Of a stretch of DNA of 35,370 nt, positions 2,867 through 35,370 are shown in pieces. A program made the translations under genes and the position numbers. Origin of the DNA: a virus (taxonomy: Duplodnaviria > Heunggongvirae > Uroviricota > Caudoviricetes); IMG/VR virus record IMGVR_UViG_2778261227_000014; one strand, given 5' to 3'. Below the pieces are notes generated by a model, which saw only the letters and a list, made by a program, of their open reading frames with translations, was not told the DNA's origin and searched no databases. Positions within the stretch are counted from its first letter, which is position 1; every line of letters begins with the position of its first letter.

Positions 2867-3205
2867 ATGCTGAAGCAACGCCGTAATTTTCGTACCGGAA
2901 CAGAACGCCACGCTAACCGTTTCACTACCAGTGCATCACGCAGCAACATTCGCTACAGCCTGAGTGATACACACGCAACGCCGGATGGCTACCCAGTAAA
3001 ACAAATCGGCGAGCACGCCTGGCTGATTGAGAAAGCTGGAATCGTGATCCACAAATGCCCACGCAATCCGTTTACCGGAAACCGCATTTTTGCATTGAGC
3101 TGTGGCGACAATCAGTTCGGGCAGGATTTCACATTATACGAAGCACTTCGCACGGTTGATCGTCTGCTTCGCGGGCAAAGTTTTATTAAACAGGCTGATT
3201 TATAA
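2867..3205 (+). CDS. Hypothetical early protein
   Basis: 112-aa ORF with a GAGG upstream of the ATG, co-oriented in the early operon. Confidence 0.5.
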   Translation: MLKQRRNFRTGTERHANRFTTSASRSNIRYSLSDTHATPDGYPVKQIGEHAWLIEKAGIVIHKCPRNPFTGNRIFALSCGDNQFGQDFTLYEALRTVDRLLRGQSFIKQADL

Positions 3206-14556: not shown

Positions 14557-14710
14557 TGCTCCCCCTGAGTAATTACAGGAAGATTACCCGCGCGCGAAAC
14601 CGTTCTCCTTAACCCCCTGTTCTGACTGTTTTCTTACAACAAAAGCCCTTTGTATCAGCCTGTTACGCTTTGCCATCATGACTGAAGAACCAGTCAGAGG
14701 GGCAAAAACT
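14557..14710. promoter_or_regulatory. Divergent late promoter region (P operon leftward, O operon rightward)
   Basis: 154-bp intergenic region between divergent P and O starts; by analogy with Ogr-activated P2 late promoters. No motif confidently mapped. Confidence 0.4.
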
Positions 14711-15547
14711 ATGGCTAATGAAAAAAAGACATCCCGCAAAAAGTTTCGCGTGGCTGTCTCCGGATCAACTGTTGATGGCCGCGAAATCAGCCCGGTACAT
14801 CTGCGTGAAGCCGCCGAGAACTTCAACCCGGATGTTTACGCTGCCCGCGTGAACGTTGAGCACTATCTCTCGCCATGCCCGTCAAGCGAATTTTCCGCAA
14901 TGGGCGATGTCACCGCGCTGAGTACGGAAGATATTACGGAAGGCCCGCTGGCCGGACGTACTGCGCTGTATGCAGAAATCGAACCGACCGAGCGCATGAA
15001 GCAGCTTGTCGCTGACGGCAAGAAAATCTATTCCAGTATCGAACTGCACCCGCAGTTCTCCGTTAACGGACGCGCCTATCTGGTCGGGCTGGCGATGACC
15101 GACACCCCGGCAAGCCTGGGCACTGAGCGCCTGAAATTCACGGCACAGCAACGTCAGGCGGTGATGACGTTCAACAGTGTCCAGGGTGAAGCGCCGCTTA
15201 TCTCCGAAGCCATCGAGTCTGAAATCATCGAAATGGCAGAACAACGTCAGGAAGAAGGCACCCAGTGGTTTAACCGCGTAATGGGGATTATTGGCCGTGG
15301 CCGCAAAGCGGATGACGCCAGTTTTTCCCGCATCCAGGAAGCGGTGGAAGGCGTCGCAACGTCACAGGCCGACATTATCGACCGTTTTAATACACTGGAA
15401 ACCCGCCATCAGCAGGACAGCCAGAAAATCACGTCACTGACCACAGAGCTGACAGCACTGAAGGAGAAACTGCGCACGCAGGACGGCGATCCGCAGAACC
15501 GGTTCACCGCAACGGGCGCAGCCTCCGACCAGCTGGCTGACTTCTGA
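14711..15547 (+). CDS. O: Capsid scaffolding protein, P2 gpO-like
   Basis: ATG at 14711 (MANEKKTSRKKFRVAVSGSTVDGREISPVHLREAAENFNP) parallels the P2 O N-terminus; the track start at 14678 lacks an RBS. Confidence 0.85.
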   Translation: MANEKKTSRKKFRVAVSGSTVDGREISPVHLREAAENFNPDVYAARVNVEHYLSPCPSSEFSAMGDVTALSTEDITEGPLAGRTALYAEIEPTERMKQLVADGKKIYSSIELHPQFSVNGRAYLVGLAMTDTPASLGTERLKFTAQQRQAVMTFNSVQGEAPLISEAIESEIIEMAEQRQEEGTQWFNRVMGIIGRGRKADDASFSRIQEAVEGVATSQADIIDRFNTLETRHQQDSQKITSLTTELTALKEKLRTQDGDPQNRFTATGAASDQLADF

Positions 15548-19990: not shown

Positions 19991-20618
19991 GGCATTCACC
20001 CGCGTGGATGAAACCTTTGAGGCCATCCGCGACAGCCTGAATCAGCAGGCCATCAATAACATCACCAGAAAGCTGGCACAGGATTTACGCCGCGCCCAGC
20101 AGGCGCGTATCCGGTCACAGAAAGCGCCGGACGGGACCGCGTGGACACCACGCAGACGCCGCGTAACCCGGATACAGGAACGCATTCGCTTTATCTGGAA
20201 TAACGAAGCACGCACGCTGAAAAACTGGCATCACGACACGGGGAAATACGGGCGAACCATTACCGGGTGGGATGAGGATAAAAACAGCATCCGTACGTTT
20301 TACCGGGATGACATCGACCGTTTTCTGGAAATACGCACCCGGCGCATCAACCAGGACAGCACAAAGCGCGTCCCCATGTTCGTAAAACTGCGCACCGCCC
20401 GCTACCTGAAAGCCCGTGCAGATGCTTCCGGTGTGACGGTGGGTTACAGCGGCGTGGCCGCACGTATTGCCCGCGTTCATCAGTTCGGTGAGCGCGATCA
20501 GGTTGCGCCGGGCATTTTCACCGATTACCCGGTACGTGAGCTGTTGGGCATCAGTCAGGCAGATGAACGCCTGATTTATAACACGGTGCTGGGCCGGATT
20601 GCGGAGGCTGTACGGTGA
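19983..20618 (+). CDS. S: Tail completion protein, P2 gpS-like
   Basis: ATG at 19983 overlapping the R end; RIRSQKAPDGTAWTPRRRR resembles P2 S; longer than P2 S, so the start or a C-terminal extension is uncertain. Confidence 0.75.
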   Translation: MDKAFTRVDETFEAIRDSLNQQAINNITRKLAQDLRRAQQARIRSQKAPDGTAWTPRRRRVTRIQERIRFIWNNEARTLKNWHHDTGKYGRTITGWDEDKNSIRTFYRDDIDRFLEIRTRRINQDSTKRVPMFVKLRTARYLKARADASGVTVGYSGVAARIARVHQFGERDQVAPGIFTDYPVRELLGISQADERLIYNTVLGRIAEAVR

Positions 20619-21196
20619 GCGCAGAACTCATGCGACTGCTGAGCAATATCATCCGCACCGGGATCATCTCTGAAGTTGATGAGAAGTCCTGGCGCGTGCG
20701 CGTTCGCAGCGGCGAACTGGAAACAGGCTGGCTGCGCTGGAACACCACGCGCGCGGGAGCCTTCAATGTGTGGCTGCCGCCATCACCAGGCGAACAGGTG
20801 GTAATTGCCTGCATTGGCGGCAACCCGGAAACCGCCATGATAATTGGCAGCCTGTGGAGTGATGCCAGTCCGGCCCCCGGCAAAAGCCTGAAAGAAATCG
20901 TGATCAGCGCGCCGGACGGCGCGGTGTTCCGCTACGACGCGGACGCAGGCGCACTGAGCGCCAGCGGCATGAAAACGGCCACTTTACAGGCATCCGTCAG
21001 CGTGAAACTGGACACGCCCGTCGTGGAATGCACAAACCTTCTGAGAACGGCGACGCTTGACGTCACAAAAGGAGGAAAGATGAGCGGCAATATCACGCAC
21101 AGCGGCGGCAACTTCACCTCAAACGGCATTACCGTGCATACGCATAAACACGGTGGCGTGAAAGGTGGCAGCGATTCGACAGGAGGCCCGCAGTGA
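20615..21196 (+). CDS. V: Baseplate spike protein, P2 gpV-like
   Basis: GTG start; IRTGII...GW..W...RAG, CTNLL.TATLDV.KGG.M.GNI.H.GG...SNG...HTHKH blocks match P2 V. Confidence 0.85.
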   Translation: MSAELMRLLSNIIRTGIISEVDEKSWRVRVRSGELETGWLRWNTTRAGAFNVWLPPSPGEQVVIACIGGNPETAMIIGSLWSDASPAPGKSLKEIVISAPDGAVFRYDADAGALSASGMKTATLQASVSVKLDTPVVECTNLLRTATLDVTKGGKMSGNITHSGGNFTSNGITVHTHKHGGVKGGSDSTGGPQ

Positions 21197-22968: not shown

Positions 22969-24948
22969 ATGAGTACCACAACACGAAAATTTAAAACCAT
23001 TATCACTGATACTGGTGCCAAAAAATTAGCTCAGGCTGCCGCGCCAGATGGTAATCCTGTCCGCCTGACTCATATGGCCGTGGGCGACGGTGGCGGCACG
23101 TTGCCCACACCAGACAGTAAGCAGACCCATCTGGTGCATGAGGTGTGGCGACATACTGTTAATCGCGTCATCCTGGACGCAACACATCAGAACCGCATTA
23201 TTGCAGAGCTGGTTATCCCTCCTGAAACGGGCGGGTTCTGGATCCGGGAAATTGGTGTATTTGATGAGCACGGCGATTTGATCGCGGTGGGCAATACTGC
23301 CGAAAGTTACAAGCCAACCGTTGCCGAAGGATCCGGACGTGCACAAACATTTCGCACCATTCTGACCGTATCCAGCACTGCCACCGTGGCGCTTACCGTG
23401 GATAACACCATGGTTATGGCCACAGTGGATTACGTGAATGACAAACTGAAAGAGCATGAACAGTCACGACGTCACCCGGACGCCTCGCTGACCGCAAAAG
23501 GCTTTGTTCAACTCAGTAGCGCCACCAACAGCACGTCTGAAGCACTGGCCGCAACGCCGAAAGCGGTCAAGGCAGCCTATGACCTTGCTAACGGGAAATA
23601 TACCGCTCAGGATGCCACGACGGCACGAAAAGGAATAGTCCAGCTCAGTAGCGCCACCAACAGCACGTCTGAAGCACTGGCCGCAACACCGAAAGCGGTA
23701 AAGACAGCATATGACCTTGCTAACGGGAAATATACCGCTCAAGACGCTACGACAGCACAAAAAGGGATTGTCCAGCTAAGCAGCGCGACTAACAGCACAT
23801 CTGAAACGCTTGCCGCGACACCGAAAGCAGTGAAAGCAGCTAATGACAATGCGAATGGTCGGGTACCTTCTGCCCGTAAGGTGAATGGTAAGGCGCTTTC
23901 AGCGGATATAACACTGACACCGAAAGATATTGGTACGCTTAACTCAACAACTATGTCATTCAGCGGTGGTGCTGGTTGGTTCAAATTAGCAACGGTAACC
24001 ATGCCGCAGGCGAGTTCTGTTGTTTCAATTACGTTGATTGGTGGGGCTGGATATAACGTCGGTTCACCTCAACAGGCAGGTATATCTGAACTTGTTTTGC
24101 GTGCAGGTGATGGTAATCCGAAGGGGATTACTGGTGCTTTATGGCAGCGCACATCGGCAGGGTTTACAAATTTTGCCTGGGTCAATACATCTGGTGATAC
24201 TTACGATATTTACGTTGCAATCGGAAATTATGCGACTGGTGTAAATATTCAATGGGATTATACCAGTAATGCCAGCGTAACGATTCATACATCACCAGCA
24301 TATTCTGCTAATAAGCCGGAAGGGTTAACGGACGGTACAGTTTATTCACTCTATACGCCATCAGAGCAGTTTTATCCGCCTGGCGCACCAATCCCGTGGC
24401 CATCGGATACCGTTCCGTCTGGTTATGCCCTGATGCAGGGGCAGACTTTTGACAAATCTGCCTACCCGAAACTTGCAGTCGCTTATCCGTCAGGCGTGAT
24501 CCCTGATATGCGTGGCTGGACGATTAAGGGCAAGCCCGCCAGTGGTCGTGCCGTATTGTCTCAGGAACAGGACGGCATTAAATCGCACACCCACAGCGCC
24601 AGCGCATCCAGTACGGATTTGGGGACGAAAACCACATCGTCGTTTGATTACGGAACTAAATCCACAAATAACACCGGAGCACATACACACAACTTTGCTT
24701 ACAACAATACTTCAGCATACGCAGAAACTCCCGGTACCGGTGGTGGAATGCATGCAACTAACACAAGCAAGACAGCAAGTAATCGCGTATTAAGCGCAGG
24801 AGCTCATACTCACACAGTAGCAATAGGTGCGCATACACATACGCTCGCTATTGGTTCGCACACACACACCATTACCATTGCCGCTTATGGCAACGCGGAA
24901 AACACCGTAAAAAACATCGCATTTAACTATATTGTGAGGCTTGCATAA
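22969..24948 (+). CDS. H: Tail fibre protein, P2 gpH-like, with internal tandem repeats and C-terminal His-Thr repeats
   Basis: 659 aa; conserved N-terminal anchor region; three tandem copies of about 40 aa; C-terminal [31 protein letters not shown]. Confidence 0.85.
23497..23856 (+). repeat. About 3 x 120-bp tandem repeat inside the tail fibre gene
   Basis: Near-identical units encoding (K/R)G(F/I)[12 protein letters not shown](A/T)LAATPKAVK(A/T)[17 protein letters not shown]. Confidence 0.8.
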
Positions 24949-25547
24949 TGGCATTCAGAATGAGTGAACAACCACGAACCATAAAAATTTATAATCTGCT
25001 GGTCGGAACCAATGAATTTATTGGTGAAGGTGATGCATACATTCCACCTCATACAGGTCTACCTGCAAATAGTACTGATATTGCTCCGCCAGATATTCCA
25101 GCTGGCTTCGTGGCTATTTTCAACAGTGATGAGGCATCGTGGCATCTTGTTGAAGACCATCGGGGTAAAACAGTTTATGACGTGGCATCAGGGGACGCGT
25201 TATTTATTTCTGAACTCGGCTCATTACCGGAAAATGTCACTTGGTTATCCCCGGAAGGGGAGTTTCAGAAGTGGAACGGCACAACGTGGGTGAAAGATGC
25301 AGAAGCAGAAAAAGTGTTCCGGATACGGGAGGCGGAAGAAACAAAAAACAGCCTCATGCAGGTAGCCAGTGAGCATATTTCGCCACTTCAAGATGCCGTA
25401 GATTTGAATATTGCAACAGAGGAAGAAACATCGTTACTGGTGGCATGGAAGAAGTATCGAGTGCTGCTGAACCGTGTTGATACATCAAGAGCACCGGATA
25501 TTGAGTGGCCAGCTTCCCCAGTGGAATCAAGGAGTAAACAAGCATAA
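24948..25547 (+). CDS. G: Tail fibre assembly chaperone, P2 gpG-like
   Basis: 199 aa immediately after H (TAATG overlap). Confidence 0.8.
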
Positions 25548-25641
25548 AGGCTTTCATTTCAAACCATTGTAGTACAGTTTTTTGTATAGTACCCTGCTCA
25601 TTTCGGATGACATGTGTGATTTGGAATTTCAGGGTACCATT

Positions 25642-26820
25642 ATGAATGTTATTTCATCATTAAAACAGCTTAACAGACAGCGAAATATTAAAACAAAAAA
25701 GATAAAGACGAAGGCCAGACTGGCATTTCTAAAAATGCGATACAGAAGGAAAACATCATTACAGCCGAATAGTTATAAAACAGTGTGCATTTTCATGCAC
25801 ATGCAAGCCATTGGTGACGGCATCGTTACCTCAGGGTTTATTAAACAACTTCAAAAATCCGGTATGGTGGTATATGTGATAGCACCTTCAAGAGTATCAT
25901 TCCTCTTTACTGATATTGTTGGCGTGGATGCCTTTATATCTTACGAGAAAAATAAATTTAACGAACTAAAAGCAAAGATAAAAAAACTGAATGTAGATCT
26001 TGTTGTTGACTTCTCAAATTTTGATAACACAGCGATAACCAGATTGCAAACACTACATTTACTTAGACCTAAACACTCTATCTGTTTTAATCATCCTGCC
26101 GTAACTATTTTTGATACAAATATAATCGATAATCGTTCCATTCACACATCTGAAAGAATGAAAAAAGTTTTATCTTTACTAAAGATAAAAAATAATAATT
26201 ATGCTGCAGCACTTAATTTTGACAACAAAACATATGAACCAGCAAATATTGTTGCAAATGAATTCAGGAAGAAAAACAAAAAATTAGTTATATTTAACCC
26301 TTATGGCTCTCAGAATAGCAGAACCTTATCTGATGAACAGATAAACAAAGTACTAGCTTACCTTAATAACCTTAAGGGATATCACACAATAGTTTTTAAT
26401 ATGGGAAAACAGATTAATCACAATGGATTGGATAATGTGTCTCTATCTCCATTTTCTGATGCCGGATGTTCATTTGCATTGGTTCGCCATGCTGATTTTG
26501 TTATAACTGTAGATACTGCCATTGTACATTTAGCCAGTGCATTAAACATTAGACAATACTGTATATATAATAACAGAATGCATGAAGGAAAATTCGAAAA
26601 TAATATTGTGTGGGGGCCAAACAGCAAATTAGCGACTCAACTCACCACATCCGAACATCTAAGGTCTGAAGGGGGCGACGATATGCATAAATTCGACATA
26701 ATGATCTTAATTAATGCTATCAAACAAGATTTGACAAACGATATACCGAATTACCACTCGGATTTAGGTTGTAAAAATAGATCCAGAAACCCAGAATTAG
26801 AAAGTAGCAATTCTTTATAA
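25642..26820 (+). CDS. Glycosyltransferase family 9-like (heptosyltransferase-like) moron; start uncertain (ATG 25612 or 25642; the track start 25582 is TTG)
   Basis: Strongly AT-rich versus flanking phage genes; N-terminal VCIFMHMQAIGDGIVTSGFIKQL resembles the GT9 ILVIRLxAIGDxxxTxP box, and C-terminal FVITVDTAIVHLASALNIRQY resembles the GT9 NDSGPMHLAAAL box. Sits at the P2 Z/fun position. Confidence 0.55.
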   Translation: MNVISSLKQLNRQRNIKTKKIKTKARLAFLKMRYRRKTSLQPNSYKTVCIFMHMQAIGDGIVTSGFIKQLQKSGMVVYVIAPSRVSFLFTDIVGVDAFISYEKNKFNELKAKIKKLNVDLVVDFSNFDNTAITRLQTLHLLRPKHSICFNHPAVTIFDTNIIDNRSIHTSERMKKVLSLLKIKNNNYAAALNFDNKTYEPANIVANEFRKKNKKLVIFNPYGSQNSRTLSDEQINKVLAYLNNLKGYHTIVFNMGKQINHNGLDNVSLSPFSDAGCSFALVRHADFVITVDTAIVHLASALNIRQYCIYNNRMHEGKFENNIVWGPNSKLATQLTTSEHLRSEGGDDMHKFDIMILINAIKQDLTNDIPNYHSDLGCKNRSRNPELESSNSL

Positions 26821-26916
26821 AGTAGAAACCTCAACAGTTTTATCAGGACCTACGATATATTATATAACAACAAGCCGCCCATTACCCAATATGAGGGTAT
26901 TAGCGGCAATGTAAAA

Positions 26917-27411
26917 TCAAAACAGTCCTTTAACTGAACTGGCCGCGCTGTTAAGGGATGATGTGACCTTATCTTTGAAGCCGGACAGCATATCACTGAA
27001 CGATGAGGATTGCAGACGCTCCCGCAAATCCTCATCACAGCGTTCAAGGGTCAGTGAAAATTCTATCTTTTTCGCCTTACCGTAGCGATCAAACTCGGAA
27101 CGGGTCGTATTCGTTTCAGTCAGTACATACATGCCGTAAATCTGCCCGACACCATCAATCAGAGGCCAGGGGCGTCCTGTATATGCCTGCGTGGTCAGCA
27201 ACGAAAGCGACACTTCGCCACCTGTAATTTCAGGATAAAGCACGCCGGAAAGCACGATGCGATCATCACCTGCGCCGATATACTGCCAGCTTGCTGAACG
27301 GTTAACGCGTTCATTTTTCACATGCCGCCAGCTTTTGTTTTGCTGTAACTGCTGATGCGGCAATGTGCGCAGCTCAAAAACAAACATGCCGTAGATCATC
27401 ATCATGGCCAT
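26917..27411 (-). CDS. U: Tail protein, P2 gpU-like
   Basis: 164 aa; WRH, LSGVLYPEITGG and RPWPLIDG.G.IYGM.V blocks match P2 U. Confidence 0.85.
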   Translation of the reverse strand: MAMMMIYGMFVFELRTLPHQQLQQNKSWRHVKNERVNRSASWQYIGAGDDRIVLSGVLYPEITGGEVSLSLLTTQAYTGRPWPLIDGVGQIYGMYVLTETNTTRSEFDRYGKAKKIEFSLTLERCDEDLRERLQSSSFSDMLSGFKDKVTSSLNSAASSVKGLF

Positions 27412-27417
27412 GACTCC

Positions 27418-30234
27418 TCAATCTTTATCGTAAAAACTGCCACGTCCGGCACGGTCGCGTCGTTCCAATTCTGCCCTGACCATTTCACCGACCAGTTTCG
27501 CCAGTTCGCGGGGATTCTGTGTAACAACGTTATGCAGATGAACATGAATTTCACCGCCAAATCCGGAGGCAACAGGCTCCCGGTTACGGGAAGTTGCAGG
27601 AGCTGATGCCACTGGCGATCGTATGGCCTCCGCCACCGGGCGGGAGCTGGCCGCAACAACAGGGACCAGCGCCGGAGGCAGCGGAGCCGGAACCACGGGT
27701 GTGATATTAATTGCGGGGGCAGGCTTACTGACCTGCGCAATCTTCCGCTCCTGCCACTCCCCACGAACAGCAAGTGCGCGGGGCAGGTTCTTAAAGACAA
27801 TATCGCCGGGGCCAATGCGTTTTTTCGTCTCATCAACCAGCTTACCTGTGTTATCAGCAATTTTGCTGAGTCTGCGTAGCGTACCGGTATTGCTGTCTGT
27901 GAGCGGTTTGTTGTCTTTGGGCTTATCACCTCCGGTACCATTGCCATTTTCCACAGGCTTCGGCGGATTGATTTTCGCCAGGTCCCCCTGAAGCAAGGCA
28001 ACCTTATCCTGAAGAATGGCCGCACGCTGTGCGTCTTCGATTTTCTTGCGCGCCCTTTCCGCTTCATCCGGAAGCACACCGAGCTTTTCAAGTATCCACG
28101 CCAGCGTATCCAGCAACATTTTTGCAGGTGTCAGAACAAGCTGTAACGCACCGCCAAGAACGTTACCGAATATCTCGCCAGCACTGGTACATTTATCCAG
28201 CGTTTCCTTGCTGGACTCCATCGGTGACAGCAGCGATTTAAACCAGTTAAACACCTGGCTGATCCCGCTTCCGATTGCGTCAAAAACAGGACCAAACCGT
28301 TCAAAGGTTTCGCGCAACGGGGTCAGCCTTTCCATAATCCCGCTGAACACCCCGGCAAAAAATGCCCTGATGGGATCCCAGTATTTCCAGATGAGAACGG
28401 CAGCTCCGGCGAGCGCAGCCACAATAAGACCAACCGGACTGAACAACGCCCCGATAGCGCCCCCCAGTAAAGAAACGGAACCCGTCACCATTCCCCACAG
28501 CGCAGGCAACACCCTGACGACATTCATTGACCGGGTAAGAATGTCAAAACCAAGACGCAGGGTGGCCAGCTTCCCGTAAAGCACCCCAATAACCAGCGAC
28601 AACGAGCCAATCGTTGCAGTCATTGCCAGCAACGCACCGCCTGCTATCAGTAGCTGGCGCGTCAGTACCGGATGGGCCTGCGCCAGCGAGGTGATTTTTT
28701 CAAGCACCCGCGTGAGCCACTGCGTGACAGAACGCAGCGGACCGTCAACCAGATCACTGATGCGAATACGAAGACCTTCCCATGCGCTGTCGAGATTTTT
28801 CAGGTCCCCATCAAGATTATCGGCCATTACTTTTGCAACGCGATCGGCCTCTCCCCTTGCCCCCTGCAATTCTCTGGTCAGTTTTTGCAGTTCTCCTGAA
28901 CCAGCCGCCGCAACAAGCGTCTGCAAACCAACGAACGCCTCTTCTCCGGCGATGTCCTTGAAGAAGGAGACCTGGTCCACCTGTCCGTATTTTTGTGTCG
29001 CCTTATAGAGATCAAGCAGCACATCCTCCATTGGGCGCATTTTGCCTCTGGCGTCAGCAACTGACACCCCCAGCTCTTTCAGTGCATCAGCCGCAGCTTT
29101 TGGCGGTGATGCAAGGCGGGACAGACTTGCGCGCATGGCCGTACCCGCATCGCTTCCGCGAAGACCATTATTGGCAAGCATCCCGGCCATGGCCGCCGCT
29201 TCTTCAAGACTGATACCAAGTTTTGCGGCAACCGGACCGGTATACTTCATGGTTTCGCCCAGCGCGCGTAAATCAGTATTGGTCCGGGTGAATGCTGCTG
29301 TCAGCGTATCGCCAACCCGGTCCATTTGATCGGCTGTCAGGTTGAACTGTGTGAGGATATTGGAGCCTATATCAGCCGTCTCGCCGAGTTCGACGCCACC
29401 TGCCAGCGCCATATTAAGAACACCGGGCAATGCGGCCTGAATGGCCTGCGGAGTAAAACCAGCCATTGCCAGAAAGCTCTGCCCACTGGCGGCATCACTC
29501 GCAGTAAACTGTGTTTCAGAGCCAAGTTTTAACGCCTGCTCACGCAGCGCCTTAAACTGCGGGCTGTTTTTGTCGATTCGCGTCAGTGCCTGAACGCGGG
29601 ACATCTCTTTGCCGAACCCGATCGCAGGCTGCAAAAAACGCCCGGCAGCATAGCCGCCCGCCGCTGCCGCACCAATTGCCAGCGCACCACCTGTTTTCAG
29701 TTTTCCCGCGGTTTCCTGCGCGCGCGAATACCGCTCACGCGCCTGCGTTACACGCGCAAGCGCCTGCCGTTCGCGTTCAAGCTGGTTGTTGTATTGTTCG
29801 GTGCGTCTGATGGCCTGCTGAATGGTGTTATCGCTGCCTGTCAGGGAAATGCCGTGGCGTTTCAGTTCTCCGCCAAGCTCCCGCATTTTTTGAATTTCCC
29901 GTGTGCGCGATTCATTCAGGCGTTCAAGCCGGGTGCTTAACTGCTGCATCAGCTTTTGTTGTTTTTCGCTGAGCACTGTACCCGTGCGTTGTAACTGATT
30001 AAGGGCGTTAAGCTGGCGTCGTGCTTTCACGATGCCCGCATCCGCTTTACTGACAGCGTCACGGGCGCGCTCAAATGAACGCGCCTGACGCTCGAGATTT
30101 TTGATCGCCCCCTGCGTTCGCTGGATGGAGTCACCAAACTGCCCCATCAGGCGGCGGGCGTTTTCGGCAGGCCGGGTCAGCCTGTCAACGGCGCTGAAAG
30201 CGACCCGGATATCAAGAGTCTTCATTATCTGCAT
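27418..30234 (-). CDS. T: Tail tape measure protein, P2 gpT-like
   Basis: 938 aa, coiled-coil-rich N-terminus, Gly/Ala-rich hydrophobic middle; between E/E' and U. Overlapping + ORFs 28016-28579 and others judged spurious. Confidence 0.9.
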   Translation of the reverse strand: MQIMKTLDIRVAFSAVDRLTRPAENARRLMGQFGDSIQRTQGAIKNLERQARSFERARDAVSKADAGIVKARRQLNALNQLQRTGTVLSEKQQKLMQQLSTRLERLNESRTREIQKMRELGGELKRHGISLTGSDNTIQQAIRRTEQYNNQLERERQALARVTQARERYSRAQETAGKLKTGGALAIGAAAAGGYAAGRFLQPAIGFGKEMSRVQALTRIDKNSPQFKALREQALKLGSETQFTASDAASGQSFLAMAGFTPQAIQAALPGVLNMALAGGVELGETADIGSNILTQFNLTADQMDRVGDTLTAAFTRTNTDLRALGETMKYTGPVAAKLGISLEEAAAMAGMLANNGLRGSDAGTAMRASLSRLASPPKAAADALKELGVSVADARGKMRPMEDVLLDLYKATQKYGQVDQVSFFKDIAGEEAFVGLQTLVAAAGSGELQKLTRELQGARGEADRVAKVMADNLDGDLKNLDSAWEGLRIRISDLVDGPLRSVTQWLTRVLEKITSLAQAHPVLTRQLLIAGGALLAMTATIGSLSLVIGVLYGKLATLRLGFDILTRSMNVVRVLPALWGMVTGSVSLLGGAIGALFSPVGLIVAALAGAAVLIWKYWDPIRAFFAGVFSGIMERLTPLRETFERFGPVFDAIGSGISQVFNWFKSLLSPMESSKETLDKCTSAGEIFGNVLGGALQLVLTPAKMLLDTLAWILEKLGVLPDEAERARKKIEDAQRAAILQDKVALLQGDLAKINPPKPVENGNGTGGDKPKDNKPLTDSNTGTLRRLSKIADNTGKLVDETKKRIGPGDIVFKNLPRALAVRGEWQERKIAQVSKPAPAINITPVVPAPLPPALVPVVAASSRPVAEAIRSPVASAPATSRNREPVASGFGGEIHVHLHNVVTQNPRELAKLVGEMVRAELERRDRAGRGSFYDKD

Positions 30235-30750
30235 TCCCGCTGCGAAGTGCCGCCCGCTCGCGCCAGCTAACCACTTCGCCGGGCGTCATCATGAAGATTT
30301 CGGCGGGCGACCAGTTAAAAATGGCGGCAATATCCGCCACCAGATCTTCGATGTGCTCAAAGCACACCAGGGTGATTACGCTGCCGTCTCCTGCACGCTC
30401 TTCGCGCCAGAGTCTGGCTCGCTCATAAAATTTACAGCCACAGCGCACAACTGAATAAAATCGCGTGACGACATTTTTTTAATCATCACTTCATCCAGTC
30501 GTGGCGAGGTCACGCGAGGCAACAGCGTGAACATGGTATCCGCTTTCAGATTCAGCACATCAGACAGCGACAGACCACGCAGGGATCCAGCCTGCTCAAT
30601 AGCCCCGGTGATCTCCACATACGTGATTTTTTCGCCACCACGCTCAATTGGTCGGGTCAGTTTTACGCCACGTTCGACAGCCATATCCTCACCAGCCGTC
30701 ACATCATCCGCCACGGTGTTATTCCGGGTTTCAGTATCGATGTCTTTCAT
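30212..30750 (-). CDS. Tail assembly chaperone frameshift product, P2 gpE+E'-like (programmed -1 frameshift)
   Basis: A7 run on the - strand (+ coordinates 30474-30480) within codons ATT AAA AAA ATG; the -1 frame continues open through ...VVRCGCKFYERARLW... to 30212, and the extension resembles the P2 E' segment. Confidence 0.65.
30376..30750 (-). CDS. E: Tail assembly chaperone, P2 gpE-like
   Basis: ATG at 30750 with AAGGAG 7 nt upstream; LRGLSLSDVLNLKADTMFTLLPRVT parallels P2 E. Confidence 0.8.
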   Translation of the reverse strand: MKDIDTETRNNTVADDVTAGEDMAVERGVKLTRPIERGGEKITYVEITGAIEQAGSLRGLSLSDVLNLKADTMFTLLPRVTSPRLDEVMIKKMSSRDFIQLCAVAVNFMSEPDSGAKSVQETAA

Positions 30751-30805
30751 TAGTTGTCTCCTTTTCAGTCAGAGGCGACGCACTGCGCCGCCTGCATATT
30801 ACTTA

Positions 30806-31318
30806 TCAGCCAAGCCCAAGCGCGGAACGGATACGGTCAGGCACAATGTCCTTGCCGTCCTTCCGGTAGATGTGGTTCAACAGGTCGATTTCCCACAGCG
30901 GGCGATCGTTAACGCTCAGCTTGTAGTAGGTGTTTTTGACAGCGTAAGTGTGTGATGTGGCTTCGCCCTGTTTGGCTTCCCCCATATCAATTTCCGTCAC
31001 ACGCCCGCGCATCTCGATTTCATACAGATCGCTTTCTGCATCGGTGTAGTATTCACCCGCAAAACGCAGCAACGTGCCGTCAATCGTGCCGCCATATTTA
31101 AGGAACAGCTCACGAACTGCGCCCCCCATGACAAAACTCGCATCAAGCGCAGAATCATCAAGACCGAGGTCGATACTTACTGCCCCCATCATGCCACCGC
31201 CACGATAGCTTTCAGTTTTGCGCGTCAGTTTAGGTGGAGTGACGGACGTCACCTTACCCACTTCGTTTTCACCATTCACAAACAGCGTAAAAAAGCGAAG
31301 ATGTTTTGGCACAGCCAT
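30806..31318 (-). CDS. FII: Tail tube protein, P2 gpFII-like
   Basis: 170 aa; KLTRK.E.YRGGGM.G...DLGLDD.AL and EID...N blocks match P2 FII. Confidence 0.9.
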   Translation of the reverse strand: MAVPKHLRFFTLFVNGENEVGKVTSVTPPKLTRKTESYRGGGMMGAVSIDLGLDDSALDASFVMGGAVRELFLKYGGTIDGTLLRFAGEYYTDAESDLYEIEMRGRVTEIDMGEAKQGEATSHTYAVKNTYYKLSVNDRPLWEIDLLNHIYRKDGKDIVPDRIRSALGLG

Positions 31319-32502
31319 CAGGCACCTCCCAGCACCGCAAATGCGGGATCAAAGTATTCATCAGTAAACGTCTGGTAAAGCTCCATATCTTCCAGCGGAG
31401 GAACGGGCGTATATTTGTAGCGAATACGCACACGCCCCTGACGTAAATCCGTGGTGCTGTTATCCACCACGTCATACCAGCACGACGCGCCAATCAGTTT
31501 CCCGGCAGTAACCAGTGAATCCAGTTTTGCCCTGATGGCACTGATAACATCCTTCACGTTCGCAGGCGTCAGTGGACTGTCGATGGTTTCAAACTGCGCT
31601 TCCGCAATTGAATCAGCCAGCACCTGTGCGGTTCGGGTATACACCTCAAAGATGTAGGCGTTCGTTTCCGGTGTGCGGTTGCCCCAGAAGCGGAACCCGT
31701 TGCGACGAATAATGGTCGTGATTTCTTTGTTGTTAAGGCTGTTGGCATCGCTGTCTTCGGCCTGCAACGACCAGAACACATGCCGGGACATCCCCAGCAC
31801 ATTTTTAACCGGAACGTTGGACAGTGATTTGTGCCAGCCCTGCTCATGGTCAATGTACGCACGAAGGCCGCACGCATAAGCAGGCGCGGGGAACGTTTCG
31901 TTTTTGCCACTTTTCGGGTTGTAGGCGATGAAGTCCGGCCATAAGAGCATCACCTCACGTTCGTTGAATTTCTGGCGGTAGGTAATTGCCTCTGCCATCG
32001 TGTTACAGCCGTGACATGAGGCATACACAAACGCGCGCAGTTTACCTGCAATCACGCACAGGGATTTTGTTACAGCCTCCGTGTCCAGCTCCGGCGCGGC
32101 CAGAATACGCGGACGGTATCCGATGCTTTCATCCTGCTCTGCAACAAGCAGCGCATACATCCCCGTATAGCTGCCGTCATCCTCAGAACCACCGATAACC
32201 AGTTGATCCTGCGTCTTTCCGTCTTCTTCTTTGTGTTCAGCCACGCGAACGACGATCACCTTTGTGCTCACCTGGTCTGCGATGGCCTTAAGCGCACGAT
32301 AAAGCGTCCCCGTTGTCCCGCATTTTCCCAGCACGTCATTGACGCGGGTCAGCAGTGTGGGCTTGTTCAGCGGGAACAGCTTCGCGTCCGCATCATCCGC
32401 CGTTGCCACGATACCGATAACGCTGGAATCAACATCGTTAATCGCTGTTACCAGGTCGGTATTTTCCGTAACACGGGCACCATGAAAACGAGTTTCACTC
32501 AT
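31318..32502 (-). CDS. FI: Contractile tail sheath protein, P2 gpFI-like
   Basis: 394 aa; ADDADA..FPLNKP, KLRAF.Y, WPDF.A, QGWHK.LSNV, LIRR.GFRFWGNRT, YTRTAQV.AD, YTPVPPLE blocks match P2 FI. Confidence 0.9.
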   Translation of the reverse strand: MSETRFHGARVTENTDLVTAINDVDSSVIGIVATADDADAKLFPLNKPTLLTRVNDVLGKCGTTGTLYRALKAIADQVSTKVIVVRVAEHKEEDGKTQDQLVIGGSEDDGSYTGMYALLVAEQDESIGYRPRILAAPELDTEAVTKSLCVIAGKLRAFVYASCHGCNTMAEAITYRQKFNEREVMLLWPDFIAYNPKSGKNETFPAPAYACGLRAYIDHEQGWHKSLSNVPVKNVLGMSRHVFWSLQAEDSDANSLNNKEITTIIRRNGFRFWGNRTPETNAYIFEVYTRTAQVLADSIAEAQFETIDSPLTPANVKDVISAIRAKLDSLVTAGKLIGASCWYDVVDNSTTDLRQGRVRIRYKYTPVPPLEDMELYQTFTDEYFDPAFAVLGGA

Positions 32503-32659
32503 AGCTTCAGCCCCTTGTATCCGTTAAATGATTCGGCAACAATCATCACCCACCGCGCGCGTAATCTCACCCCTGCGCCATTCTCCCGCCACGGCGACAA
32601 CAAAAAGCAGTAACCCCCTCCGCACGCACATGCGACCATGCCGCACAGGGAGGGAACAG
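32503..32659. promoter_or_regulatory. Divergent intergenic region expected to carry late promoters for FI (leftward) and D (rightward)
   Basis: 157 bp between divergent FI and D starts; GC-rich; no motif confidently mapped. Confidence 0.35.
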
Positions 32660-33769
32660 ATGACCGACACCACCATGCAATTGCTCAGTCAGGGCACAGA
32701 CCCCGTGAAAATGCCGGATTTTGATATTCTCGCGGAGGGTAAAACGCTGTCAGGAGTGGCAGAGCGCCTGATGAGCCTGTCACTGACCGACAACCGGGGA
32801 TTTGAGGCGGACCAGCTCACCATCACGCTGGATGATGCGGATGGTCAGTTGCAGCTACCGCCACGGGGCGCGCGCCTGACGGTTCTCATTGGCTGGAAAG
32901 GAGAACCGCTGACAGAAAAAGGCACTTACATTGTTGATGAAATCGCTCACGAAGGACCGCCGGACAGGCTGACTGTTTCAGCCAGAAGCGCAGATTTTCG
33001 GGATGAATTTAACGTTAAACGTGAGGTGTCCTGGCATGATGTGACCATTGAGCGTGTGGTATCCGCCATCGCTCATCGGTATGGTCTGAAACCGCAAATC
33101 AGCGAAATGCTGATGGATATCGAAATCGACCACGCCGACCAGACCGAAGAAAGCGACATGTCCTTCCTTACGCGCATGGCGGAAATGCTGGGCGCAATCA
33201 CCACGGTAAAAAGCGGTAATCTGTTATTCATCATGCCAGGCGGTGGCGTGAACGCACAGGGCCAGCCGTTGCCCTCGTTCGCCATCACGCGCAGCAGTGG
33301 CGATCGCCATCAGTTCCGCATTGCTGACCGCGAAGCGTATACGGGGGTACGCGCTTACTGGCTTGATCTTAATTACGGGAAAAAGAAAAAAGTCAGCGTG
33401 AAACGCCGCAAACCGCCAAAACCCAAAAAGGAGAAAAGCAGCAGCCGTGAAGGTGATTATATGGAAGGCGCAGAAGGCAATGTGTTTGTGTTACGCAAGA
33501 CTTATCAGAACGAGCAGGCAGCAAGACGCGCAGCGGCGGCAAAGTGGCAGCAGCTACAACGCGGAGCCGCAGCGTTCTCCATCACACTGGCACGTGGACG
33601 CGCAGAACTCTACCCCGAAATGCATGGCACGGTAACAGGATTTAAAAGCGAAATTGATAATCAGGACTGGATTATTGCAAAAGCCGAGCACACCATTGAT
33701 AACAGTGGCTTTACCACGCAGCTTGAGCTTGAAGCCAAAATCCCGGAATGGATAGCAGAAACAGAGTAA
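32660..33769 (+). CDS. D: Tail protein, P2 gpD-like
   Basis: ATG at 32660 with GGGAGGGA upstream; 369 aa; N-terminus MTDTTMQLLSQGTDP... and size match P2 D. Confidence 0.85.
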   Translation: MTDTTMQLLSQGTDPVKMPDFDILAEGKTLSGVAERLMSLSLTDNRGFEADQLTITLDDADGQLQLPPRGARLTVLIGWKGEPLTEKGTYIVDEIAHEGPPDRLTVSARSADFRDEFNVKREVSWHDVTIERVVSAIAHRYGLKPQISEMLMDIEIDHADQTEESDMSFLTRMAEMLGAITTVKSGNLLFIMPGGGVNAQGQPLPSFAITRSSGDRHQFRIADREAYTGVRAYWLDLNYGKKKKVSVKRRKPPKPKKEKSSSREGDYMEGAEGNVFVLRKTYQNEQAARRAAAAKWQQLQRGAAAFSITLARGRAELYPEMHGTVTGFKSEIDNQDWIIAKAEHTIDNSGFTTQLELEAKIPEWIAETE

Positions 33770-33963
33770 ACAACTTAGATGCATTAGCCCTGACATTTGC
33801 TAACGCGCTTACAGCAAGAATCATAACCAATCTGACAGCCTACCCGGTGTCAAAATCAGAAGAGCCTTACATTAGAATATGTTAATTTGTAGCAAACAAA
33901 TTTACACACAAATGATTACTGCTGAAATAGCCCCCATAAATACCATGTCAAAGGATCCATGTT

Positions 33964-34629
33964 ATGAATATGCAAATTTTTATCGCACCAGCAGCCACAG
34001 TTGCTGCAGTCTGCCTTGCTGCATATTTTGCTTTACGAAATGAACGTAAAAAGAAAGCACTTGAGATTAGAACAACTCAACTAGATCGAATATCAGAGCT
34101 AGTAAACCGAGCATCTACCAATTTGATGCAATATACAGGTACTCTTGCCTCTATACTGGAAGCGCACGCCAAAGATAATTATCTACCGAACAAAAAATTT
34201 GACATTAATGTAATTAGCAAATGGAAAGATTGCCTCGATGAGAGTGAGGTCTGGGCGATTGATAGACAGCAACTAAGAACATGTCAGCACAGTCTGGAGT
34301 TTCATCGTGAAAAAGAATGGGCTGAATGGAAAAAAATAATTCCACCATTACTTGATAAAATTGACCAATTTTTTCTCATATCTAAGCCAGGGCAACCTGT
34401 TACGTTTATAAATGGCCAAAACAAAACAGCTGATGAACTACTTGTTTTCTCAAGATATTTGAGAAAACAAACAGCAGAAATTGAATCAGTACGTCAGCTG
34501 TTACTTTCTCAAATGAGAGAGGAATTCATCGAGTTAACTAGCTTTGAACCTGTCACAATGTTTAGCTTATTTAAATCAATAAAGAAAAATGTCATGCAAT
34601 TTTTCTGTATCAGTGCTCTTAAAAATTGA
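33964..34629 (+). CDS. AT-rich moron: protein with N-terminal TM helix, function unknown
   Basis: 221 aa, AAGGA RBS 8 nt upstream; N-terminal MNMQIFIAPAATVAAVCLAAYFAL is hydrophobic; composition distinct from flanking phage genes; followed by a terminator. Confidence 0.6.
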   Translation: MNMQIFIAPAATVAAVCLAAYFALRNERKKKALEIRTTQLDRISELVNRASTNLMQYTGTLASILEAHAKDNYLPNKKFDINVISKWKDCLDESEVWAIDRQQLRTCQHSLEFHREKEWAEWKKIIPPLLDKIDQFFLISKPGQPVTFINGQNKTADELLVFSRYLRKQTAEIESVRQLLLSQMREEFIELTSFEPVTMFSLFKSIKKNVMQFFCISALKN

Positions 34630-34644
34630 CGCTCTGTTGCAAGC

Positions 34645-34674
34645 AACCCCAGTGTTAAACTGGGGTTATTCTTG
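34645..34674 (+). terminator. Rho-independent terminator after the moron
   Basis: aaccccag-tgttaaa-ctggggtt hairpin followed by the T-rich attcttg. Confidence 0.55.
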
Positions 34675-34778
34675 CTAAGAGACCTTTCTACGGCATCAGT
34701 AAACAAAACGAACTATCAGTTGGAGTCTGAGCAAGTTCAGCCTAAACTAGCGACAGCACTACGTTAAGGGAGGTCGCT

Positions 34779-35039
34779 ATGTTCCGTTGTCCGCTTTGTG
34801 GCGCATCTGCCCGTATCCGCACCAGTCGTCCGGAAAATGATTCAAACACCGTGCGGCAAAAGTATTACCAGTGTAACAACCTGGAATGCGGCGTATGCTT
34901 CTCAACACTGGAAGCTTTCCATAAATTCACATCGAAACACGCCTCCGGCATCCACTCTTCAGAAGATATCCCGTGGCATGAGCTGCCAGCTTCACACAGG
35001 GGAAACAATCAGATGAGCTTGCCTTTACCTCAGAATTAA
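34779..35039 (+). CDS. ogr: Late gene transcriptional activator, Ogr/Delta-type zinc-finger protein
   Basis: MFRCPLCGASARIRTSR...YYQCNNLECGVCF matches the Ogr C2C2 zinc-finger pattern (P2 Ogr MFHCPLC...RTSR...YHQC.N..C, from memory); GGGAGG RBS. Confidence 0.8.
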   Translation: MFRCPLCGASARIRTSRPENDSNTVRQKYYQCNNLECGVCFSTLEAFHKFTSKHASGIHSSEDIPWHELPASHRGNNQMSLPLPQN

Positions 35040-35099
35040 CAGGCAGAATTGCCGGAGTAACAAAAACGCGATAGATTACGCGCGGGTGCCTTTCGGCTG

Positions 35100-35312
35100 A
35101 TGGTCGGAGGGAATACCCGAAGGCCAGATGTGGAAAGGCCCCGGAAAACATCTCTGTTTAACCGAGGCCCTAACCGCATTACCTTGACAAGTGAAAGGTT
35201 AGCGCCTCTCCGGAAAAGGAGCAAGTGCTATGTCGCAAAAATCGCTTACGGCCATCACGTTCTGCGTGACGGCAATCCTCATCATCTGGATGTTGCACGG
35301 TTCGCTGTGTGA
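35100..35312 (+). CDS. Possible mok-like reading frame overlapping the hok-like gene
   Basis: 70-aa ORF overlapping the hok-like start in another frame, as in hok/mok loci; weak evidence. Confidence 0.3.
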   Translation: MVGGNTRRPDVERPRKTSLFNRGPNRITLTSERLAPLRKRSKCYVAKIAYGHHVLRDGNPHHLDVARFAV

Positions 35313-35370
35313 AATACGGATGAGCTTCTGGGGAGCGGAGTTTGCGGCGTTCTTACAGTGTAAGCAGTAA
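35230..35370 (+). CDS. hok: Hok/Gef-family type I toxin (small membrane peptide)
   Basis: 46 aa MSQKSLTAITFCVTAILIIWMLHGSLCEIRMSFWGAEFAAFLQCKQ: TM helix followed by the SLCEIR signature and AAF motif typical of Hok/Gef; GGAG RBS; the stop codon is the last 3 nt of the window. Confidence 0.7.
   Translation: MSQKSLTAITFCVTAILIIWMLHGSLCEIRMSFWGAEFAAFLQCKQ

Follow-up and report, generated by a model that had tools for sequence, protein, structure and literature searches.

Late genes and tail block of the window

The late genes of the window, that is the whole 35,370-nt stretch of DNA analysed, were located by tblastn of P2 proteins against it and by Pfam. Homologues of FI, FII, E/E', T and U (26917-32502) all lie on the minus strand, whereas every other P2 late-gene homologue, D and ogr included, lies on the plus strand in P2 order: FI-U excepted, Q, P, O, N, M, L, X, R, S, V, W, J, I, H, G, D and ogr were placed in the order and relative orientation of P2. 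An earlier note on this DNA had assigned FI, FII, E/E', T and U to the minus strand and G, D and ogr to the plus strand, with coordinates that proved accurate, and its statement that P2 carries FI-FII-E-T-U-D as one operon co-oriented with V-G and ogr agrees with the P2 record NC_001895.

The contractile-tail late module of the P2 family (Peduoviridae) is represented by homologues of sheath, tube, chaperone, tape measure, U, D and Ogr/Delta, and its tail proteins and Ogr share 33-48% identity with their P2 counterparts. Pfam identified the sheath, tube FII, tape measure, GpU, GPD and Ogr_Delta, and gave a TAC_7 match under its cut-off. In order of position, the minus-strand block holds a homologue of the tail protein gpU (26917..27411; Phage_P2_GpU, E = 5.5e-39; 46% identity to P2 U), followed by the tape measure protein gpT (27418..30234; PhageMin_Tail, E = 1.6e-56; 33% identity to P2 T) and the tail assembly chaperone gpE (30376-30750; 35% identity to P2 E), whose weak Phage_TAC_7 match (E = 4.7e-4, 20.6 bits) falls below the cut-off of 25 bits. 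An E' ORF in the -1 frame overlaps E (30212-30448, minus strand) and a candidate slippery heptamer, A_AAT_TTT, lies at 30433-30427 on the same strand, both read from the sequence; the corresponding site in P2 is TTTTTTG. The P88 annotation carries both E and E' pieces, and by analogy with P2, E/E' would be made by a -1 frameshift into the ORF that overlaps the start of T. Next in position are the tail tube gpFII (30806..31318, minus strand; Phage_tube, E = 7e-46; 44% identity to P2 FII) and the tail sheath gpFI (31318..32502, minus strand; Pfam sheath domains; 46% identity to P2 FI). Beyond a divergent FI/D spacer of 157 bp (32503-32659), the plus strand carries a gpD homologue (late control D/baseplate hub; 32660..33769; Phage_GPD; 48% identity to P2 D), which is set apart from U by the rearrangement, and an ogr/delta-type zinc-finger late activator (34779..35039; Ogr_Delta, E = 5e-14; 38% identity to P2 Ogr), the presumed ligand of a dyad in the FI/D spacer.

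Relationship to P88

Judged by nucleotide similarity, the window is an ordinary P88-like prophage (Xuanwuvirus, Peduoviridae). It shares 95.9% nucleotide identity with P88 across 80% of positions 1-24000 and 93.6% across 66% of positions 24000-35370, and its FI-D segment is 98% identical to that of P88. P88, 520873 and phiSM are 95-96% identical to the window with ~80% of the first 24 kb covered, and 92-96% identical from the tail block to ogr. The similarity to P88 is high genome-wide and gene order is collinear except for cargo, which places the window in Xuanwuvirus; the threshold of nucleotide similarity for a genus is ~70%. The members of the genus compared were P88, P88_4B11, 520873, 500465-2, 503458, PhiR44_2, Chuche and Citrobacter phiSM, and the closest relatives (P88, P88_4B11, phiSM and others; 92-98% nucleotide identity) have the block in the same orientation as the window. 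Because P88 and phiSM form plaques (PMC5285337, PMC6456863), this layout is functional.

Distribution of the inverted order

We defined a locus as P88-type when U-T-E-FII-FI lies on the strand opposite V-G and D with an FI/D spacer of ~145-164 nt, an arrangement that the window has. U-T-E-FII-FI is annotated opposite D in P88, P88_4B11, phiT5282H, 3LV2017, ST16-OXA48phi5.4, KSP20 and SEN5, and four further Peduoviridae genera (Novemvirus, Reginaelenavirus, Reipivirus and Senquatrovirus) share the layout at ~65-73% nucleotide identity in FI-D. The FI/D junction is unbroken in 42 records of the phage collection and intact in 1355 of 5426 complete E. coli genomes (about a quarter); a synthetic U-then-D junction, as it would read without the inversion, was found in none of the 1413 E. 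coli genomes carrying these alleles. Among the best 80 D-homologue loci, kept from species-representative genomes of ~30 enterobacterial genera, 59 were P88-type and 20 P2-type, and unrooted neighbour-joining trees of D and of FI each split the two types cleanly. P2 and Fels-2 have the canonical co-oriented order, and so does phiCTX of Pseudomonas, a distant family member (V-W-J-I-H-G-FI-FII-E-T-U-D, P2-type).

The earlier note had read the orientation as what an in-place inversion of the 5.6-kb segment would produce, and had named misassembly as a finding that would refute it. A reading as a notable local inversion is not supported. That the segment was flipped recently in this genome, or by a mistake in assembly, draws its sole support from the contrast with P2 and has a negligible probability, given that both junction types recur in independently sequenced isolates and in the 1355 complete E. 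coli genomes, that other genera at ~65-73% nucleotide identity have the same orientation, and that the uninverted U-D junction is missing from all 1413 allele carriers. The departure from the canonical order holds with respect to P2 and Fels-2, but P88, P88_4B11, phiSM, the four further genera and a quarter of the E. coli genomes share the orientation of the window. Throughout the P88-like branch of P2-family phages the inverted order is normal and fixed, and it is not rare; a search of the accessible literature returned no explicit description of the inversion itself. P2 is the wrong annotation template for P88-like prophages, which are very common in E. coli, and a tail block that looks inverted when set against P2 is no reason to flag rearrangement or misassembly. 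The arrangement is a clean synapomorphy and could aid in classifying P2-family prophages.

Junctions, cargo and a candidate terminator

No inverted repeats linking the two junctions were found in 26600-32800, in agreement with the earlier note; the absence of such repeats is neutral with regard to a recent inversion or misassembly. Between G and U, P88 carries an invertible alternative fibre segment and a DNA invertase, and the window instead carries an AT-rich GT9-like gene; a 221-aa ORF between D and ogr is present in the window and absent from P88_4B11. The DNA invertase gene adjoins the 3' end of U in P88 and P88_4B11, and reversible inversion of the fibre segment has been reported in P88-like prophages (bioRxiv 10.1101/2022.05.07.487787). 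Both observations would favour a programmed switch, in which FI-U is flipped reversibly by a Gin/Cin/Hin-type invertase like the neighbouring tail-fibre segment of P88. An invertible segment of this type has an adjoining serine invertase, is flanked on either side by inverted crossover repeats and occurs in both orientations within populations. Tblastn gave no significant match in the window to the P88 or Fels-2 invertase, remnants of the P88 variable segment were likewise absent from the window, repeats were lacking at both junctions, and a single orientation was seen in more than 1300 E. coli genomes and all phage isolates. In the flipped state, moreover, the F operon would face D and the conserved divergent architecture would be lost, and we regard a programmed switch as extremely improbable.

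A candidate intrinsic terminator of the leftward FI-U operon lies at 26867..26908 on the minus strand, with a hairpin GCCGCUAAUACCC...GGGUAAUGGGCGGC followed by UUGUUGUU. The minus-strand RNA of 26850-26945 folds at -25.4 kcal/mol (z = -1.9), and a further small hairpin that carries a T-run (26941-26923) overlaps the stop codon of U. The element sits in a portion that has no counterpart in P88, and the indication that it ends the FI-U operon is weak to moderate.

A dyad and two predicted promoters in the FI/D spacer

The FI/D spacer of the window, which differs from that of P88 by two bases over the compared stretch, contains a putative Ogr-type activator dyad of the T[G/C]T-N12-ACA class, TCT-CCCGCCACGGCG-ACA, with a D-side extension ACAACAAAAA (32582..32599, assigned to neither strand). 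The late activator consensus is TGT-N12-ACA (PMC3931495; the P2 record NC_001895 was also used), and the window dyad, with TCT rather than TGT, has five of its six bases. Dyads with at least 5/6 consensus bases were present in 53 of 56 non-identical P88-type spacers, a set of related sequences in which conservation may overstate constraint, and the perfect TGT-N12-ACA occurs in 3LV2017, KSP20 and many prophages. Just one dyad is conserved within the spacer. In most loci, ~79-89 nt separate its centre from the FI ATG and 67-80 nt from the D ATG; the P_F dyad is 73-78 nt from the FI ATG in P2-type loci, compared with 74-80 nt in most P88-type loci. The same motif occurs in the P/O spacer of the window (14621-14638). 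A second dyad-like site (GTT-N12-AAC, 32521-32543) was rejected, being not conserved in other genera and implying a start inside FI. We also discarded ACAACAAAAA as a relic gix/cix half-site, given that the same extension accompanies the P/O dyad and that ACAAC is found in many P2-type P_F sites.

On the FI side, a predicted -10 element GATGAT (32542..32547, minus strand) would belong to a leftward late promoter, the counterpart of P2 P_F, with the start predicted near 32533-32535. Its offset from the dyad is at most 1 nt off that of the P2 P_F -10 (the P2 record annotates the P_F start), and an alignment of 54 non-identical spacers on the dyad shows the strongest conservation on this side at hexamer positions 2 (A), 5 (A) and 6 (T). 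On the D side, a predicted extended -10, TG-C-GACCAT (32631..32639, plus strand), would belong to a rightward late promoter for D with the start predicted near 32645-32647; within this element, at +49 to +57 relative to the dyad, conservation falls on TG and on the second (A) and sixth (T) bases of the hexamer. The two -10-like elements are symmetric, ~46 nt either side of the dyad centre, and both are predicted to fit a dyad at -55/-56, as in P2-type Ogr-dependent late promoters. Promoters of that class require Ogr together with the alpha subunit of RNA polymerase, and an Ogr homologue is encoded in the window. The strict extended -10 pattern (TGnNAnnnT) was found in 34 of the 56 P88-type spacers, and on the corresponding side of P2-type P_F regions in 0 of 15. 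A dyad combined with an extended -10 at that spacing occurs twice in the whole window, for O and for D (~0.5 expected by chance). A generic scan for sigma-70 promoters and terminators returned promoter-like sites in chance number and flagged none in the spacer, which fits activator-dependent promoters lacking a -35 element.

The earlier note had reasoned that D would need its own promoter in the 157-bp divergent region, and the dyad with the predicted extended -10 provides a candidate. This motif geometry makes it probable that D is served by an Ogr-dependent promoter of its own, with the dyad common to this promoter and P_F. A less likely reading is that the inversion is real and ancient but that D is transcribed from a promoter separate from the P_F dyad, whether through an activator site of its own, from an early or constitutive promoter, or under a different regulator. 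The D-side hexamer of the window, GACCAT, is weak, its predicted D leader is short (~13-15 nt) and 22 of the 56 spacers lack the strict extended -10, as a separate promoter would allow; such a promoter fits less well with the single conserved dyad, its position relative to the D ATG, the finding that conservation on the D side is strongest at TG, A2 and T6, and the same composite pattern marking O in the window.

Proposed origin and expression of the inverted order

Taken together, we consider it very likely that the P_F-FI-FII-E/E'-T-U segment was inverted once, in an ancestor shared by a large branch of enterobacterial P2-family phages to which this P88-like prophage belongs, that the order was then fixed, and that expression probably proceeds from a bidirectional FI/D region. 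One breakpoint would have fallen in the cargo (Z/fun) region past the tail-fibre genes and the other at the U/D boundary. The F operon now runs leftward, converging on the V-G transcription unit around the cargo hot spot, and D, with ogr downstream, is left on the opposite strand. Both sides would be kept expressed by a late control region in the 157-bp spacer, where one dyad-symmetric Ogr site (32582-32599) would stand at about -55 for two divergent promoters, the old P_F and a clade-specific D promoter with an extended -10. The in-place inversion of FI-U put forward in the earlier note, once extended to include its promoter, is the best account of origin, but as an ancient clade character and not as an event in this genome. 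We infer that the co-oriented order is ancestral because P2, Fels-2 and the distant phiCTX, the few outgroups that give the polarity, all have it; the mechanism of the inversion is not recoverable, since the event would be too old for breakpoint signatures.

A different history, in which mosaic recombination brought in the FI-U module from another phage, by chance in reverse orientation, is very improbable. Mosaicism around the Z/fun cargo site is a feature of P2-like genomes and the cargo of the window differs from that of P88, as such a gain might entail. However, identity to P2 is 33-46% inside the block and 48% (D), 47% (V), 47% (Q) and 44% (P) outside it, so that the block and the flanking late proteins are about equally far from P2; the FI and D trees split identically and cleanly; and the dyad-FI distance matches that in P2-type P_F, as expected if P_F moved with FI. 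Very improbable, too, is the converse polarity, with the P88-type order ancestral and the co-oriented order of P2 derived by a reverse inversion: the unrooted D and FI trees are silent on polarity and leave room for it, but phiCTX, Fels-2 and P2 are all co-oriented. R-type pyocin and Mu-like tail clusters are likewise co-oriented from sheath to hub.

For the ancestral inversion of FI-U with P_F, we lean towards a specific regulatory consequence, namely that the FI/D spacer is a naturally evolved bidirectional late promoter: the inversion would have brought the P_F dyad beside D, a new extended -10 would have arisen 46 nt beyond the dyad, and the F operon would have been split without losing Ogr control. 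If this is true, all P88-type late genes run from two bidirectional pairs, P/O and FI/D, in contrast to the P2 set of P_P, P_O, P_V and P_F. No explicit description of an FI/D bidirectional late promoter was found in the searchable literature. The predicted shared-dyad region would be a small example of a palindromic activator site permitting an operon to be split by inversion, and is of modest relevance to P2 late gene regulation.

Comparison with known systems

Gene order and orientation in Xuanwuvirus (P88 and others) are identical to those of the window, including minus-strand U-T-E-FII-FI and the divergent FI/D spacer. Novemvirus phiT5282H, Reginaelenavirus 3LV2017, Reipivirus ST16-OXA48phi5.4, Senquatrovirus SEN4/SEN5 and Serratia phage KSP20 also have FI-U inverted, with an FI/D spacer of ~150 nt and a dyad as in the window, but differ in hosts and cargo and share ~65-73% nucleotide identity in FI-D.

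P2, and phages of the 186/Fels-2 type, resemble the window in late gene set and order save for the orientation of FI-U. P2 and the window have in common an Ogr-type activator, TGT-N12-ACA-type sites, overlapping E/E' frames and a shared P/O dyad. P2 transcribes FI-FII-E-T-U-D rightward from P_F as one operon, whereas in the window FI-U is inverted and D detached; S abuts V in the window without a P_V-like site, unlike in P2, and the predicted late promoters of the window form two bidirectional pairs, again unlike those of P2. A close parallel in geometry to the FI/D spacer is P_P/P_O of P2, whose starts at 3016 and 3127, annotated in NC_001895, flank one activator site with its dyad centre at 3071.5. 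They are ~111 nt apart, each ~55.5 nt from the dyad centre, and the geometry of the FI/D spacer, with predicted starts ~112 nt from each other, matches this. In Smp131, P_P' and P_O' likewise share one activator site (PMC3931495). Unlike P_P/P_O, the FI/D pair would drive tail genes and seems to be a clade-specific derivative of P_F.

An inverted tail-gene block in a P88-like prophage

Sequence comparison places the window among the P88-like prophages (genus Xuanwuvirus, family Peduoviridae). P88, 520873 and phiSM matched positions 1-24000 at 95-96% identity, with about 80% of that query covered, and the part from 26910 to the end at 92-96%. Using tblastn of P2 proteins, we located int and C at the left end, A, Q and P on the minus strand, then O, N, M, L, X, R, S, V, W, J, I, H and G on the plus strand, together with D (32660-33769, +) and ogr (34779-35039, +). 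All these homologues kept the order and relative orientation that they have in P2. Only FI (31318-32502), FII (30806-31318), E (30376-30750), T (27418-30234) and U (26917-27411) departed from it, each lying on the minus strand. FI, FII, T and U were also recognized by Pfam, and the TAC_7 match of E was weak, below its cut-off. These data confirmed the strands assigned in the earlier note. Its account of the P2 order was also right: in the annotated record FI-FII-E/E'-T-U-D form one rightward operon from the late promoter P_F, co-oriented with V-G and ogr. The leftward operon is followed by a candidate terminator at 26867-26908, and no inverted repeats linking the two block junctions were found in 26600-32800, as had been stated. 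At E/E', a candidate -1 slippery heptamer, A_AAT_TTT, lies at 30427-30433 (-), where P2 has TTTTTTG instead; the E' ORF, in the -1 frame, spans 30448-30212 and shares 23 nt with the beginning of T.

The inverted order is fixed in a large clade

The possibility of a misassembly, raised in the earlier note, did not hold: P88 and P88_4B11 are annotated with the identical layout (G, a variable segment, U-T-E'-E-FII-FI on the opposite strand, D, ogr), and 1355 of 5426 complete E. coli genomes carry the FI/D junction (32300-32900) unbroken. Reference genomes fell on both sides, P2 and Fels-2 having the canonical tail-gene order, unlike the window, and P88 and P88_4B11 its orientation. A 2.45-kb query made of FI, the spacer and D matched 42 phage records as one collinear piece, including Enterobacter phage phiT5282H (Novemvirus), Klebsiella phages 3LV2017 (Reginaelenavirus) and ST16-OXA48phi5.4 (Reipivirus) and Serratia phage KSP20, each at ~65-73% identity. 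In Salmonella phage SEN5 (Senquatrovirus) only D was matched; its annotation, like those of the other four, shows the inverted block. The match of the P88-like prophage records NC_049344 (520873) and NC_049341 (503458) starts at query position 210 because an IS100 (IS21-family) element splits FI. P88 and phiSM form plaques (PMC5285337, PMC6456863), and the inverted arrangement is therefore functional.

We further scanned species-representative bacterial genomes with D alignments and kept the best 80 loci, from ~30 enterobacterial genera. By tblastn, 59 were P88-type (FI-U opposite to D), 20 P2-type (co-oriented) and 1 unclear. Each of two neighbour-joining trees, one of 82 D and one of 73 FI sequences, had a single branch that parted all P88-type from all P2-type loci. 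One locus with a full P88-type tail block and a D 98% identical to that of the window lies on a 226-kb contig (NZ_JBQPOM010000071.1) of an assembly labelled Vagococcus sp. WN89Y, a Gram-positive genus; this assembly is likely contaminated or mislabelled. As an artificial P2-type junction we joined the final 400 nt of U to the first 400 nt of D, both in the window alleles; of the 1413 E. coli genomes carrying these alleles, 0 contained it unbroken, indicating that the block is not flipping.

Identity to P2 was 33-46% inside the block, and 48% for D, 47% for V, 47% for Q and 44% for P (tblastn). The block and the remaining conserved late genes are similarly distant from P2, which speaks against a module of foreign origin. 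phiCTX, a distant relative, shares the co-oriented order of P2, from which we infer that this order is the ancestral one and that of P88 derived. On these comparisons, the layout goes back to a single old inversion, since fixed across a large clade. The inversion proposed in the earlier note, and the need of D for its own promoter, stand; a special or local event does not. No papers remarking on the arrangement were found in the literature searched, but the feature itself is already on record, in dozens of annotated phage genomes that have been deposited and in a quarter of the complete E. coli genomes.

Cargo and candidate cargo genes on either side of the block

G and U enclose a cargo hot spot, the counterpart of P2 Z/fun. 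P88 has an invertase and an alternative fibre segment there, and the window an AT-rich gene (25642-26820, +; GC about 29-36%) flanked by the tail-fibre assembly gene and the 3' end of U. Its 392-aa glycosyltransferase family 9 (GT9)/heptosyltransferase-like product gave weak matches to RfaQ and heptosyltransferase I and a strong one to phrog_36326 (function not assigned), and the same cargo junction was present in 49/5426 complete E. coli genomes. Since the receptor of the P88-like phage phiSM is an LPS core sugar (PMC6456863), the gene is a candidate LPS modifier for superinfection exclusion or seroconversion. Between D and ogr, an AT-rich insert (GC about 37%) carries a 221-aa ORF (33964-34629, +) followed by a terminator-like hairpin (34645-34667). 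The ORF had no match in Pfam, NCBIfam, PADLOC, PHROGs or PDB sequences, and is possibly a defence or cargo gene. The identical insert occurs in 54/5426 E. coli genomes, O55:H7 CB9615 among them; in P88_4B11, ogr directly follows D without it.

A predicted shared activator dyad between FI and D

Owing to the inversion, D cannot be read from P_F. We aligned the FI/D spacers of P88-type loci (32503-32659 in the window), which are 145-164 nt long in nearly all. They hold one conserved dyad, T(G/C)T-N12-ACA, mostly extended to ACAAC(AAAA); it reads TCT-CCCGCCACGGCG-ACA at 32582-32599 in the window. In 3LV2017, KSP20 and numerous prophages it agrees in full with TGT-N12-ACA, the consensus published for P2 late promoters under Ogr control (PMC3931495). 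In most loci the FI ATG is ~79-89 nt, and the D ATG 67-80 nt, away from the dyad centre. When 54 non-identical spacers were aligned on the dyad, the flanking bases conserved most strongly made up two -10-like elements, one on each side at 46 nt from its centre: GATTAT on the bottom strand on the FI side (A2, A5 and T6 most conserved; GATGAT at 32542-32547 (-) in the window), and an extended -10, TG-n-xAxxxT, on the D side (TG, A2 and T6 most conserved; TG-C-GACCAT at 32631-32639 (+)). With either element the dyad falls at about -55/-56 from the predicted start, near 32533-32535 (-) or 32645-32647 (+).

The distance from the P_F dyad to the FI ATG was 73-78 nt in 15 P2-type loci versus 74-80 nt in most P88-type loci, and the FI-side -10 offset was within 1 nt of that of P2 P_F, for which the P2 record gives the start site. 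This agreement fits P_F having moved along with FI. An extended -10 on the far side of the dyad was present in 34/56 P88-type spacers versus 0/15 P2-type loci, where that side is heterogeneous and often terminator-like. The conserved geometry suggests that one Ogr dyad would be common to the old P_F and a clade-specific D promoter. A bidirectional late promoter of this kind, derived from P_F, may be the only new part of the arrangement, and a modest mechanistic point.

In the whole window, the composite of dyad and extended -10 occurred only at O and D (chance expectation ~0.5). The divergent terminase/scaffold P/O spacer (14557-14712) has the same dyad, TCT-N12-ACAACAAAAGC, at 14621-14638, with -10-like elements ~46-47 nt to either side (TAATCT at 14581-14586, bottom strand; TG-C-CATCAT at 14671-14679). 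The S and V homologues abut (20560-20660) and orf30 is absent, with no intergenic space or dyad at S/V, the site of P_V in P2; the baseplate and fibre genes V-G are thus probably read from P_O in this lineage. The late promoters would then form two bidirectional pairs. The P/O spacer of the window mirrors both its FI/D spacer and P2 P_P/P_O, where the record gives one activator site (dyad 3063-3080, centre 3071.5) and starts at 3016 and 3127, each 55.5 nt off. One site is likewise listed for the divergent P_P'/P_O' of Smp131 (PMC3931495), and the geometry predicted for the FI/D spacer is that of the P2 P_P/P_O region.
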